Made by a program: the position numbers and the translations under genes. The notes beneath the pieces were generated by a model that made no database searches, was not told where the DNA came from, and saw only the letters and a program-made list of their open reading frames with translations. Below are positions 7,776-45,286 of a DNA stretch of 64,000 nucleotides, one piece after another. The DNA lies in NCBI RefSeq assembly GCF_003334355.1, contig NZ_QOWP01000002.1. The stretch is one strand, 5' to 3'. This DNA is from Escherichia coli (GTDB taxonomy: Bacteria > Pseudomonadota > Gammaproteobacteria > Enterobacterales > Enterobacteriaceae). Within the stretch, counting starts at the first letter, position 1; each line of letters begins with the position of its first letter.

Positions 7776-7850
7776 GTCCTCTTAGTTAAATGGATATAAC
7801 GAGCCCCTCCTAAGGGCTAATTGCAGGTTCGATTCCTGCAGGGGACACCA
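7776..7850 (+). tRNA. argW: tRNA-Arg (anticodon CCU), argW
   Basis: GTCCTCTTAGTTAAATGGATATAACGAGCCCCTCCTAAGGGCTAATTGCAGGTTCGATTCCTGCAGGGGACACCA folds as a cloverleaf with CCT anticodon and encoded CCA end. Confidence 0.95.
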
Positions 7851-7851
7851 T
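7836..7851. repeat. attL core (CTGCAGGGGACACCAT) at the 3' end of argW
   Basis: Exact 16-bp direct repeat of 45271-45286; overlaps the tRNA acceptor 3' end and sits next to the integrase. Confidence 0.85.
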
Positions 7852-8011
7852 TTATCAGTTCGCTCCCATCCGTACTAGTCCGCAAAATCCCCTTAATATC
7901 AAGCCTTCCGTAGATTCACAGTCCGTCATGGTTCGCTTCAGATCGTTGACAGCCGCACTCCATGACGGGTAAAAAGTGGATAAAATAATTTTACCCACCG
8001 GATTTTTACCC

Positions 8012-9169
8012 ATGCTCACCGTTAAGCAGATTGAAGCAGCAAAGCCGAAAGAAAAACCATACCGCCTACTCGATGGTAATGGCCTGTACCTTTATGTCCC
8101 TGTATCAGGGAAAAAGGTATGGCAGCTTCGCTACAAGATTGACGGTAAGGAGAAAATCCTGACTGTCGGAAAATATCCGCTTATGACTTTGCAGGAAGCA
8201 AGGGATAAGGCATGGACTGCGAGGAAAGACATCTCGGTTGGCATCGATCCGGTAAAAGCGAAAAAGGCTTCGTCTAACAACAATTCCTTTAGCGCCATTT
8301 ATAAGGAATGGTACGAGCACAAGAAGCAAGTCTGGTCTGTAGGGTATGCGACTGAACTTGCCAAAATGTTTGACGACGACATTTTACCTATCATCGGCGG
8401 TCTTGAGATTCAGGATATTGAGCCGATGCAACTGCTGGAAGTAATCCGCAGATTTGAAGATCGCGGTGCAATGGAGCGAGCCAACAAAGCCCGCAGAAGA
8501 TGCGGCGAGGTTTTTCGTTACGCTATTGTCACCGGAAGGGCTAAATATAACCCGGCACCTGACCTTGCAGACGCCATGAAAGGATACCGCAAGAAGAACT
8601 TCCCGTTCCTTCCAGCAGACCAGATGCCTGCATTCAACAAAGCACTGGCAACATTTTCAGGAAGTATCGTATCGCTCATTGCGACCAAAGTTTTACGCTA
8701 CACAGCCCTAAGAACAAAAGAGCTTCGTTCCATGCTATGGAAGAACGTCGATTTTGAAAACAGGATTATCACCATCGACGCCAGTGTGATGAAGGGCCGC
8801 AAGATTCATGTAGTACCGATGTCGGACCAGGTGGTTGAGCTTCTCACTACGCTAAGCTCAATCACCAAACCAGTATCAGAGTTTGTTTTTGCCGGGCGCA
8901 ACGATAAGAAGAAGCCAATCTGCGAGAACGCGGTATTGCTTGTGATCAAACAAATCGGCTATGAGGGTCTGGAAAGCGGTCACGGATTCAGGCATGAATT
9001 CAGCACGATTATGAACGAGCACGAATGGCCTGCTGACGCTATTGAAGTGCAACTGGCACATGCCAACGGAGGTTCTGTACGTGGAATTTACAACCATGCT
9101 CAGTATCTCGATAAGCGCAGAGAAATGATGCAGTGGTGGGCGGACTGGCTTGATGCTGGATTGAAATAA
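8012..9169 (+). CDS. intS: Tyrosine-recombinase integrase (P4/IntS type, 385 aa)
   Basis: Translation MLTVKQIEAAKPKEKPYRLLDGNGLYL... with C-terminal catalytic region (...HGFRHEF...); next to the tRNA. ORF track offers an upstream GTG at 7976, judged less likely. Confidence 0.9.
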   Translation: MLTVKQIEAAKPKEKPYRLLDGNGLYLYVPVSGKKVWQLRYKIDGKEKILTVGKYPLMTLQEARDKAWTARKDISVGIDPVKAKKASSNNNSFSAIYKEWYEHKKQVWSVGYATELAKMFDDDILPIIGGLEIQDIEPMQLLEVIRRFEDRGAMERANKARRRCGEVFRYAIVTGRAKYNPAPDLADAMKGYRKKNFPFLPADQMPAFNKALATFSGSIVSLIATKVLRYTALRTKELRSMLWKNVDFENRIITIDASVMKGRKIHVVPMSDQVVELLTTLSSITKPVSEFVFAGRNDKKKPICENAVLLVIKQIGYEGLESGHGFRHEFSTIMNEHEWPADAIEVQLAHANGGSVRGIYNHAQYLDKRREMMQWWADWLDAGLK

Positions 9170-9219
9170 AACTAGAATACATTCAAATATATACTTTATA
9201 TTTTTATAAGGAGAAAGTG

Positions 9220-10287
9220 ATGGTAGCCACTAGGCTAAATTCAATACAAATAATGCGCGGTATTGCAGCATTAATTGTTGTTGCATTTCACATAAGATAC
9301 AATTTATCTGTTTATGAGCAAAAAAAATCTTGGAGACTTAATGTTTTCAAATGGAGAAGTAGGTGTATACCTTTTTTTGTGATAAGCTGATTCATTATAT
9401 CACTATCAACAAGAAGGAAAGAGTCGCCTTTAGAATTTAGCATTAAAAGATTACTTAGAATATATCCTCCATACATATTTTCTTTTGCAATACTGCTTTT
9501 TTTATTGAATGAAAATTATAGATTAATGGATGTAGTAAAATCATTAATACTAATACCATTAAACTCGCACGCCGCAGGTCCATATTACGGGTATAGTATA
9601 CTCTTAGTTGCGTGGACACTTAGTTATGAGTTGTTCTTTTATTTTTGCTTTCTTGCATCAATGTCATTAAGCCAAAAATATAGAGCGGTAATATGTTCAT
9701 TAATACTGTCATCACTAATCATATTTGGCAATTATTATTTATTTGGATCGATTGGGGTAAATCCACACACAAGAGCATTTGATGGCGGTGGAATATTTGC
9801 AAGTATTATTTTCATAACAAACCCAATAATAATAAACTTTATATTAGGGATGCTTGCTGAGTTTATTTATAGCAATACAAAAACCAACAACAAACTTTTA
9901 AACAAAGCAATTAAAATGTTAGCTCCGATAGTTGCCGTAATATCAGTCTGGGGGATGCTATCACCTTCAATGTGGATGGGTGAAATGCAGTGGGCGATAC
10001 CTTGCTTTGGTCTTGTAACCTCTTTGTCACTACTGGAGAAGTCTGGGGTTTCTTTTGAATTTCCAAGTCTTGTAAAAATTGGAGCAATGTCATTCTCAAT
10101 ATATCTAATACACCCAATAATTATCGAATTATTAAGCCAAAAATATTTTGTTGTTTTTTGGCAGGATGGATTTACTAAGTTCTCAGTCATCATTTTGATT
10201 ACAGTTTTTGCGGCAAGAATAATGTATGAAACAATTGAGAGTCCATCACAAAAACTAGCCAGAAAGCTCATATCAAAAATAAGATGA
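9220..10287 (+). pseudogene. Disrupted O-antigen acetyltransferase (acyltransferase-3 family, oac-like)
   Basis: N-terminal MVATRLNSIQIMRGIAALIVVAFHIRYNLSVYEQ (9220-) then the conserved ...LMFSNGEVGVYLF motif falls in another frame between an A8 run (9320-9327) and a T7 run (9372-9378); in-frame TGA at 9388-9390 where VISGF would carry Gly; membrane-rich remainder to 10287. Confidence 0.6.
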
Positions 10288-10291
10288 AAAA

Positions 10292-10322
10292 CTGCGATAC
10301 CATTAAATTTGTGGTATCGCAG
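10292..10322. terminator. Bidirectional terminator between convergent acyltransferase and tailspike genes
   Basis: Perfect inverted repeat TGCGATACCAttaaatttgTGGTATCGCA in the 40-bp convergent intergenic gap. Confidence 0.6.
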
Positions 10323-10327
10323 GTTGC

Positions 10328-44682: not shown

Positions 44683-44770
44683 ACCCAATATTACATAACA
44701 ATCCTCGCACTCGCGGGGATTTATTTTATCTGAACTCGCTACGGCGAGTTTTGTTTTATGGAGATGATAA

Positions 44771-44938
44771 ATGCACTTCCGAGTCACAGGTGAATGGAAT
44801 GGAGAACCATTCAACAGAGTTATCGAAGCCGAGGACATCAACGACTGCTATAACCACTGGATGATATGGGCGCAGATAGCACATGCAGACGTAACCAATA
44901 TTCGAATTGAAGAACTGAAAGAACACCAAGCCGCCTGA
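44771..44938 (+). CDS. Small hypothetical protein (55 aa)
   Basis: GGAG RBS; MHFRVTGEWNGEPFNRVIEAEDINDCYNHWMIWAQIAHADVTNIRIEELKEHQAA; stop lies in the loop of the following terminator. Confidence 0.45.
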   Translation: MHFRVTGEWNGEPFNRVIEAEDINDCYNHWMIWAQIAHADVTNIRIEELKEHQAA

Positions 44939-44952
44939 TGGCGGTTTTTTTA
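44929..44952 (+). terminator. Rho-independent terminator
   Basis: AGCCGCCtgatGGCGGTTTTTTT. Confidence 0.75.
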
Positions 44953-44961
44953 TTGCCTGAT

Positions 44962-44977
44962 TTGCAGGTTCGATTCC
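44962..44977. repeat. 16-bp copy of the argW T-arm segment (TTGCAGGTTCGATTCC) inside the prophage right end
   Basis: Exact match to tRNA positions 7821-7836; with the attR core it reconstitutes the tRNA 3' half split by 293 bp carrying torI. Confidence 0.7.
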
Positions 44978-44996
44978 CTATTCGGAGATAGCACTC

Positions 44997-45197
44997 ATGC
45001 AACACGAACTACAGCCTGATTCACTGGTTGATTTGAAATTCATCATGGCCGATACTGGCTTCGGTAAAACCTTCATCTACGACCGAATTAAGTCCGGCGA
45101 CCTGCCAAAAGCCAAAGTTATCCACGGTCGAGCAAGATGGTTATATCGTGACCATTGTGAATTCAAAAATAAGCTCTTAAGCCGCGCCAATGGGTAA
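44997..45197 (+). CDS. torI: TorI-like excisionase / AlpA-family DNA-binding protein (66 aa)
   Basis: MQHELQPDSLVDLKFIMADTGFGKTFIYDRIKSGDLPKAKVIHGRARWLYRD... winged-helix excisionase fold; same position next to dsdC as torI in K-12. Confidence 0.85.
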   Translation: MQHELQPDSLVDLKFIMADTGFGKTFIYDRIKSGDLPKAKVIHGRARWLYRDHCEFKNKLLSRANG

Positions 45198-45270
45198 AAT
45201 AGCGGGTAAAATATTTCTCACATCTAAAAAACACCATTCCAATCAATCCCCTGCCGCTTCAAGTAGATGT

Positions 45271-45286
45271 CTGCAGGGGACACCAT
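45271..45286. repeat. attR core (CTGCAGGGGACACCAT)
   Basis: Exact direct repeat of the argW 3' end at 7836-7851; prophage gene content ends and K-12 core genes (dsdC) resume just beyond. Confidence 0.85.

Follow-up and report, generated by a model that had tools for sequence, protein, structure and literature searches.

What occupies the argW locus of this Escherichia coli chromosome, and can it still behave as a phage? We analysed a 64,000-nt stretch of contig NZ_QOWP01000002.1 (assembly GCF_003334355.1; called here the window), in which an initial annotation had placed an apparently intact P22-like/lambdoid prophage at argW, the site where K-12 carries the cryptic element CPS-53 (KplE1). 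Our results point, with high confidence, to a complete and probably functional P22-like temperate prophage that combines a KplE1-type integration module with an HK022-type immunity region and put antitermination. Its full-length essential genes and exact boundaries both support a sequence-intact P22-like temperate prophage at this site.

The limits of the element are given by the tRNA gene and by two copies of one short sequence.

7776..7850, plus strand: argW, tRNA-Arg(CCT), called by ARAGORN and by Rfam (tRNA, 63.4 bits), identical to K-12 argW
7836..7851, plus strand: attL core, CTGCAGGGGACACCAT, identical in all 16 nt to the cores of KplE1 (PMC2951348) and of HK620 attP
45271..45286, plus strand: attR core, CTGCAGGGGACACCAT, exact repeat of the attL core

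ARAGORN and Rfam agree that argW is the single tRNA gene of the whole window, and the Rfam scan of the window returned nothing else, the put sites described below and other phage RNAs being unmatched at the gathering threshold. The sequence CTGCAGGGGACACCAT corresponds to the last 15 nt of argW plus one further base. It forms a 16-bp exact direct repeat around the prophage, at exactly the two positions initially annotated, and simple arithmetic gives a chance expectation of about 0.2 exact 16-mer pairs per 39.5 kb. It is also the 16-nt core published for K-12 KplE1/CPS-53 (PMC2951348), and the 'attP core' feature of the HK620 record aligns to 45271-45286. Integration at argW with this core duplicated at both ends is thus of the KplE1/HK620 type. 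Moreover, when 7852-45286 (37,435 bp) is removed in silico, the joined sequence agrees with the empty argW-dsdC site of E. coli PSS-12 at every one of the 9,203 nt that could be compared. An insertion of 37,435 bp, exact at both ends and flanked by the doubled 16-bp core, is thereby established; its integration target (attB) is the 3′ end of argW, restored by the core copy borne by the phage. The flanks, fadI, fadL, mlaA and yfdC on the left and dsdCXA, emrYK and evgAS on the right, are ordinary E. coli chromosome, and the right one is 100% identical to PSS-12 over 18.7 kb. PSS-12 (NZ_AP027697.1, 4379500-4427000) is a human faecal isolate from Ecuador with flanks identical to those of the window and an unoccupied argW. 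As a natural near-isogenic non-lysogen, it could be used as a control or an indicator strain.

Is the element then an intact relative of CPS-53, as had been proposed? The comparison starts from the two recombination genes.

8012..9169, plus strand: intS, tyrosine integrase of 385 aa (PHROG 1 integrase, E 5e-80; 380 of 385 residues identical to K-12 IntS)
44997..45197, plus strand: torI (hkaC), excisionase or recombination directionality factor (RDF) (66 of 66 residues identical to K-12 TorI; PHROG 66)

The identification of intS and torI as the same genes that flank CPS-53 is fully borne out by these residue identities. An IntS-type integrase lies at attL and reads away from the tRNA gene, and a TorI-type RDF lies at attR, as in HK620 and Kapi1. 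This layout arises because xis (torI) and int stand on either side of attP, an order shared with KplE1, HK620 and Sf6, and since intS is transcribed away from attL its promoter overlaps attL. The same recombination module, with int and xis ending at opposite prophage ends, is common to CUS-3, HK620, Sf6, Kapi1 and many prophages (PMC2951348, PMC3509656, PMC8787464). The K-12 attL and attR substrates recombine in vitro (PMC3509656). Against K-12, the corresponding regions of the prophage show 5 differences at attL (7836-8011) and one substitution at attR (45173-45307), so that the sequences on which TorI- and IntS-dependent excision would act are conserved. Alignment with K-12 is limited to 6767-9155 (yfdC, argW, attL and intS; 97.8%, gapless) and 44944-46687 (torI, attR and dsdC; 99.4%), with no match to K-12 over 9156-44943. 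Thus KplE1/CPS-53 shares attL, intS, torI, attR and the 16-nt core with the prophage at 97.8-99.4% DNA identity, but the 10.2 kb that it retains consist of gtr genes and tail-fibre-assembly remnants of another phage type, with no repressor (PMC2951348). Its interior is unrelated to this prophage, and the integration module is the sole shared part. The proposed kinship therefore holds for the recombination module and for nothing else. Intact KplE1 relatives at argW have already been published (PMC2951348, PMC3509656, PMC8787464).

A second repeat raises the question of whether the ends have been placed correctly.

44962..44977, plus strand: second 16-nt argW copy (T-arm, TTGCAGGTTCGATTCC), just 5′ of torI, exact repeat of 7821-7836, also present in K-12

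If TTGCAGGTTCGATTCC marked the true ends (7821-7836/44962-44977), torI and the right-hand core would be left over from a different, earlier KplE1-like element. This exact 16-nt repeat does bracket nearly the same DNA, and the CUS-3 GenBank record labels it as the attL/attR core and stops there. We nevertheless regard such ends as highly improbable: excision at the CTGCAGGGGACACCAT core gives exactly a real empty site, that of PSS-12; the virion-derived genomes of HK620 and Kapi1 keep torI between the TTGCAGGTTCGATTCC relic and the core; and TorI is required for KplE1 excision, the 135-bp attR substrate active in vitro beginning inside the 3′ end of torI and excluding the relic (PMC3509656). 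On these three grounds the CUS-3-style boundary was rejected, and the 'att core' of the CUS-3 record is a mislabelled relic. With the ends set at the CTGCAGGGGACACCAT core, the 31-nt 3′ half of argW (7821-7851) recurs at attR as two exact 16-mers, 44962-44977 and 45271-45286. These overlap by one base in the tRNA gene and stand 293 bp apart in the phage, with a spacer that is essentially torI, and the arrangement is kept in K-12, HK620 and CUS-3. Throughout the family of argW-integrating P22-like phages the argW 3′ half appears to be split in this way around torI, which suggests that an ancestral attP received the RDF gene. It is a tentative possibility that torI was acquired by entering a tRNA-homologous stretch, 31 nt or longer, that had until then been uninterrupted, and that the T-arm relic may have been reused in a cII-dependent promoter, which the HK620 record predicts at that spot. 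The literature consulted on this family appears to hold no description of the split argW or of such an insertion.

The second support of our interpretation is the gene content. About 65 open reading frames (ORFs) were translated and scanned against the PHROGs profiles, and every essential virion, lysis, replication and regulatory protein matches its profile end to end. The virion genes are as follows.

13858-15732, minus strand: gp16 (PHROG 770, end to end)
15732-17126, minus strand: gp20 (PHROG 917, end to end)
17139-17801, minus strand: gp7 (PHROG 598, end to end)
17788-18255, minus strand: gp14 (PHROG 651, end to end)
18255-18962, minus strand: tail needle gp26 (PHROG 1219, end to end)
18949..19494, minus strand: free-standing NUMOD4/HNH homing endonuclease in the gp10/gp26 interval (PHROG 59, E 3e-58)
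19516-20934, minus strand: gp10, head/packaging block, full-length PHROG match
20944-21405, minus strand: gp4, same block, full-length match
21386-21613, minus strand: small ORF, same block
21616-22869, minus strand: coat gp5, same block, full-length match
22888-23781, minus strand: scaffold gp8, same block, full-length match
23872-26070, minus strand: portal gp1, same block, full-length match
26072-27487, minus strand: TerL gp2, same block, full-length match
27484-27924, minus strand: TerS gp3, same block, full-length match

The P22-like order 3-2-1-8-5-4-10-26-14-7-20-16, then tailspike gene 9, is present at full length. The head block (19615-28397, 8.8 kb) is colinear with CUS-3 at 95.7% identity and with equal ORF lengths, and TerS and TerL are homologous to CUS-3/Sf101-type terminases. 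The NUMOD4/HNH gene is not found at the gp10/gp26 junction in CUS-3, phiv205-1, Kapi1 or HK620; phage HZ41 and several E. coli prophages with differing needle genes do carry it there, a pattern typical of a homing endonuclease. Its presence in HZ41 makes this insertion compatible with viability.

The remaining modules needed for lytic growth and lysogeny are equally recognizable.

29302-29769, minus strand: spanin Rz, in the lysis cassette (29302..30549; covered by PHROGs 126, 90 and 13)
29343-29549, minus strand: Rz1 lipoprotein, embedded in Rz (lipobox MVAGC)
29766-30242, minus strand: endolysin R
30226-30549, minus strand: holin S
31225..31848, minus strand: Q late-gene antiterminator (PHROG 127, E 3e-82; about 97% DNA identity to phiv205-1, Kapi1, HK620 and HK97)
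31845..35602, minus strand: nin region (ninH, rusA, HNH, roi, an ORF with a Rha N-terminus and a restriction-endonuclease-like part, ninF, MT-A70 methyltransferase, ninB)
35684-37060, minus strand: DnaB-type helicase, full length (PHROGs 19/345 for the replication pair)
37057-37887, minus strand: O-like initiator, full length (same profiles)
38068..38364, minus strand: cII lysogeny activator (PHROG 191, residues 1-98 vs 1-106 of 106)
40410..44938, plus strand: early-left operon (small ORFs, tL, cIII, erf, ssb-like, abc2, Ea22-like, two small ORFs)

The origin lies inside O, where three TCGGTAAAA iterons and one inverted copy (about 37460-37540) are followed by an A+T-rich stretch. A cI/cro/cII switch, an O-type initiator with an internal origin, nin, Q and a late operon from S/R/Rz together form a lambdoid regulatory and replication plan. 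Each functional module listed in the initial annotation is thus present as full-length ORFs by PHROG profile, and the hidden frameshifts in essential genes that it had named as grounds for doubt were looked for on alignment without any being found. Indeed, no frameshift or nonsense mutation was detected in genes for lytic growth, lysogeny, integration or excision, and broken genes are limited to an accessory O-acetyltransferase and a truncated N remnant. The statement that every module is uninterrupted stands for the essential genes, but N is reduced to its last 44 codons and the acetyltransferase gene of lysogenic conversion is a pseudogene. The first description had also passed over the HK022 immunity region with its put sites, the HNH gene at gp10/gp26, the O111-type tailspike, the dead oac and the restriction of the CPS-53 kinship to the integration module.

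To which phages is the prophage related? The best-matching DNA records all belong to Lederbergvirus (P22-like) phages that integrate at argW, with 55% of the prophage aligned to CUS-3, 53% to phiv205-1, 51% to Kapi1 and 37% to HK620, at 92-96% identity. In searches of 50,697 phage records and 5,426 complete E. coli genomes, neither prophage half was matched by any entry over 80% or more of its length. CUS-3, a prophage of E. coli K1 RS218 at argW, has the same site, int/xis layout and gene order, about 97% identity over the helicase and erf-abc2 segments (97.7% over 41542-43137), and an acetyltransferase moron between int and the tailspike gene as here. It differs by its endosialidase tailspike, phase-variable neuO, N, ant/mnt and another cI/cro. 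HK620, Sf6 and Kapi1 share P22-like virion genes, the identical attP core, a TorI-type RDF and an attP between xis and int (PMC8787464; PMC3509656), but differ from the prophage in tailspike, immunity region and conversion genes, and N is encoded in HK620. HK97 is 93-97% identical over the replication, nin and Q segments, and the early region is a recent mosaic of HK022 and HK97-like segments. The whole element reads as a new mosaic in which each piece is familiar and each unusual feature occurs in isolated phages.

Could this patchwork be a chimera of the assembly, or a fusion of two elements lying in tandem, instead of one phage genome? The best database record covers at most about 55-61% of the prophage and identity jumps abruptly from phage to phage along it, as such a junction would predict. 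Abrupt mosaic joints are normal in lambdoid phages, however, and those of the prophage coincide with the edges of genes or elements, the end of putL being one case. Furthermore, the P22-like gene order is canonical and single-copy with no module duplicated, the length is one genome equivalent (37.4 kb, close to the 38.3 kb of HK620), and both flanks match one chromosome exactly, so that we give a chimera almost no weight. A single phage genome is thus retained. All P22-like phages have lambdoid early regions. For this reason the term 'hybrid' in the label 'P22-like/lambdoid hybrid' adds little information.

The immunity region and the sequences downstream of pL are made up as follows.

38486..39503, unstranded: HK022 immunity region with cro, OR/pR and cI (99.6% to HK022 X16093; PHROGs 35 and 4; pR-like site)
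38486-38716, minus strand: cro
38796-39503, plus strand: cI, 235 aa, S24 peptidase type
38404..38465 (about), minus strand: putR, HK022-type RNA antiterminator site, identical to HK022 over the putR annotated in HK75
39578-39606, plus strand: pL, identical to HK022 and HK75
about 39613-39685, plus strand: putL, identical to HK022 and HK75 up to 39685
39746..40279, plus strand: HNH-AP2 endonuclease gene at the nun/N position (PHROG 99, E 5e-66)
40281..40413, plus strand: 3′ remnant of the N antiterminator gene, last 44 codons (tblastn, HK620 N 47-90, E 4e-10; HK97 N 106-127, E 3e-7)

Positions 38303-39688 take in cro, OR, cI, OL and pL and align without gaps to HK022 record X16093 at 99.6% identity; the similarity breaks off at the 3′ end of putL, to within 1-3 nt. 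In the HK022 type, putL lies just past pL and putR about 270 nt past the pR start, each site being of about 70 nt with two stem-loops, and the positions of the two sites here fit the promoters. ViennaRNA predicts two-hairpin folds for both with z-scores that are not significant, and the assignment rests on identity with HK022, not on folding energy. Among the ORFs past pL no PHROG N family was found, and tblastn recovered the 44-codon remnant only, devoid of the arginine-rich N-terminal part. A tblastn search with HK022 and HK75 Nun gave no homologue (E > 0.6), the site downstream of putL being held by the HNH gene; nun is a feature of HK022 itself and is not needed for put function. Because the N remnant directly follows the stop codon of the HNH-AP2 gene, the sequence suggests that nun and the 5′ half of N gave way to the endonuclease gene at the putL end.

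How would early transcription proceed without N? The put RNA of HK022 suffices alone, acting on RNA polymerase to suppress termination (PMC9378689), and readthrough of the tL and tR terminators without N is therefore expected; the HK022 putL and putR sites should compensate for the missing N. HK022, like HK75 and O276, has cro, cI, operators, pL, pR, putL and putR 99.6% identical to those of the prophage and the same factor-independent RNA antitermination, but HK022 is a siphovirus, has an att site of the lambda type and carries nun, whereas the prophage has the HNH gene, the N remnant and a P22-type virion. UPF_BP1, a Salmonella Lederbergvirus, carries the same order cII-cro-cI-putL-HNH-'gp24' at 98.2% over 38371-40332, including the same N-remnant scar (annotated 'gp24 protein'), and a needle gene 94% identical; its host is Salmonella, its tailspike is another one and most of its remaining genome differs. 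As UPF_BP1 is an isolated phage, the N-less HNH arrangement is compatible with viability and not unique.

The receptor specificity of the virion is suggested by the tailspike gene, next to which lies the conversion gene.

9217..10287, plus strand: pseudogene of an O-antigen O-acetyltransferase (acyltransferase_3, Oac-like; PHROG 3333 in two pieces, profile 3-57 and 111-366)
10328..12265, minus strand: tailspike gp9, 645 aa, P22-type head-binding and O111-type receptor-binding domains (PHROG 19784, 1-645 of 645)

The N-terminus of the tailspike matches P22-type head-binding domains in the PHROG scan. Its receptor-binding part and the acyltransferase gene are 97.5% identical in DNA to a module present in 21 genomes, whose stated serotypes are all O111, and the tailspike also matches the O111 phage ECO111 5-P. 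The receptor is hence most likely the O111 O-antigen, as judged from these O111-lineage and O111-phage matches. Salmonella O35 has the same antigen structure as O111. The P22-like prophages of enterohaemorrhagic E. coli O111 (e.g. strain 11128) carry the module at the same 97.5% identity, but in 11128 it adjoins dacD, not argW, and ant/arc are present there; the acetyltransferase alleles of these prophages differ in tract lengths. The intact allele of 355 aa, from O111:H8 strain 2009C-3675, reads A7, T8 and GGA where the window reads A8, T7 and TGA (the last at 9388-9390); oac is dead in the window, through two tract shifts and a nonsense codon. Out-of-frame alleles, broken at homopolymer tracts, make up four of the six compared, namely that of the window and three of the other four. 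Three such tracts (A7/A8, T7/T8 and a third T tract) vary among strains, a variation that could reflect slipped-strand phase variation, decay or homopolymer sequencing error.

From these elements we infer that the prophage could be induced, excise and form infectious particles, along the following lines. IntS-mediated site-specific recombination would insert the phage into the last 16 nt of argW, and the HK022-type cI repressor, bound at OR and OL, would hold lysogeny. After derepression, the putL and putR RNAs would bind RNA polymerase directly and render the pL and pR transcripts resistant to termination with no need for N. Early transcription would then reach the O initiator and the DnaB-type helicase, for replication from the iteron origin inside O, and also TorI, for excision with IntS and IHF. 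Q would switch on the late operon, with S/R/Rz/Rz1, TerS/TerL headful packaging, portal, scaffold, coat, gp4/10/26 and gp7/20/16, and the O111-type tailspike would target an O111-like O-antigen.

Several points weigh against a functional phage. Missense or regulatory defects are invisible in sequence. The three lesions of oac indicate that some mutational decay has occurred, and CUS-3-like argW prophages are reported to be commonly prone to decay (PMC9659370). Foreign sequence immediately past putL changes the natural downstream pause context, and put anti-pausing depends on distance (PMC9378689). Finally, depending on the host O-antigen, the phage may be unable to re-infect its own host lineage. 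Could the prophage then be cryptic although its ORFs are intact, either trapped in the chromosome or failing to finish lytic growth? Early transcription might, for instance, be crippled by the loss of N and nun and the changed putL context, or missense mutations might be responsible. The reduction of N to 44 codons, the oac lesions and the reported decay of its relatives would fit, as would the presence of mnt without ant, a sign that the immI region is already eroded. Nevertheless, not one essential gene is truncated, the put sites do not differ from those that function in HK022, the isolated phage UPF_BP1 has the same N-less arrangement, and HK620 is viable though devoid of a functional immI region. 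We thus consider a cryptic state unlikely and keep to the reading of a functional temperate prophage.

The genes of the immI and superinfection-exclusion interval, and the one between lysis and packaging, are as follows.

12401..12652, plus strand: Mnt/Arc-type repressor (PHROG 795/3178)
12945..13310, minus strand: hkcC homologue (PHROG 1365; 97.8% DNA identity to HK620)
13350..13835, plus strand: SieA-like superinfection-exclusion membrane protein, full length (PHROG 7745, E 6e-107)
28426..28956, minus strand: KilA-N/Rha-type regulator-like gene in the lysis/packaging interval (PHROG 129)

A tblastn search with the Ant proteins of CUS-3 and Kapi1 found no ant, and the Mnt/Arc-type gene is a remnant of an immI region of which mnt alone is left. 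Pfam gave no match for the hkcC homologue. In the nin region and the early-left operon the individual genes are placed as follows.

32030-32392, minus strand: rusA
32389-32679, minus strand: HNH gene
32679-33404, minus strand: roi
33436-33903, minus strand: ORF of 155 aa with a Rha N-terminus and a restriction-endonuclease-like part (Pfam Phage_pRha, weak MTES_1575/DUF559)
34382-34972, minus strand: MT-A70 DNA methyltransferase (PADLOC MTase_II, E 1e-69)
34969-35409, minus strand: ninB
41285-41342, plus strand: tL terminators
41375-41545, plus strand: cIII
41802-42407, plus strand: erf
42407-42790, plus strand: ssb-like gene
42814-43110, plus strand: abc2
43526-44209, plus strand: Ea22-like gene
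44401-44682, plus strand: small ORF
44771-44938, plus strand: small ORF

The first 32 or so residues of the 155-aa ORF belong to PHROG 15709, as does the N-terminus of the neighbouring roi (Rha/Roi type), and its C-terminus weakly resembles restriction-endonuclease folds of the DUF559/MTES_1575 kind. The MT-A70 gene is about 480 bp away, and the ORF may be another selfish nuclease. Ten accessory ORFs were run through PADLOC without a defence system being found; the hits were limited to the MT-A70 methyltransferase, an orphan of Type II-like character, and a weak match to mREase_II. We do not claim a restriction-modification system.

Near-identical direct repeats of 19-20 bp bracket the lysis cassette (29095-29113 and 30946-30964) and are terminator-like on the minus strand (GGGCTTTTTTATATCTGCA). 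A second near-identical pair, 43273-43292 and 43514-43533, precedes two consecutive ea genes and consists of a ribosome-binding site and start codon. Both pairs are probably short 'boundary sequences' at which lambdoid modules recombine. Outside the prophage, the fadL-mlaA interval of the left flank holds an ORF of 418 aa (4281-5537, plus strand) in a patch of 36% G+C, for which 'hypothetical' is the sole annotation in PSS-12; we take it to sit at the yfdF position of the K-12 map.

In conclusion, the finding is real but ordinary and its scientific value modest, since intact CPS-53 relatives at argW are textbook for the CUS-3/HK620/Sf6/Kapi1 family. It opens no new question, and its most interesting residue is evolutionary, namely the 3′ half of argW split around torI. 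With this prophage the P22-like phages that integrate at argW gain a further, apparently complete member, for which a near-isogenic strain offers an exact empty-site control. It also illustrates clearly that podoviruses (P22-like) and siphoviruses (HK022/HK97) have exchanged DNA very recently. Antitermination by RNA only (put) has entered P22-like phages along with an HNH endonuclease that displaced nun/N. If inducible, the prophage would be a possible O111-specific generalized transducing or typing phage.

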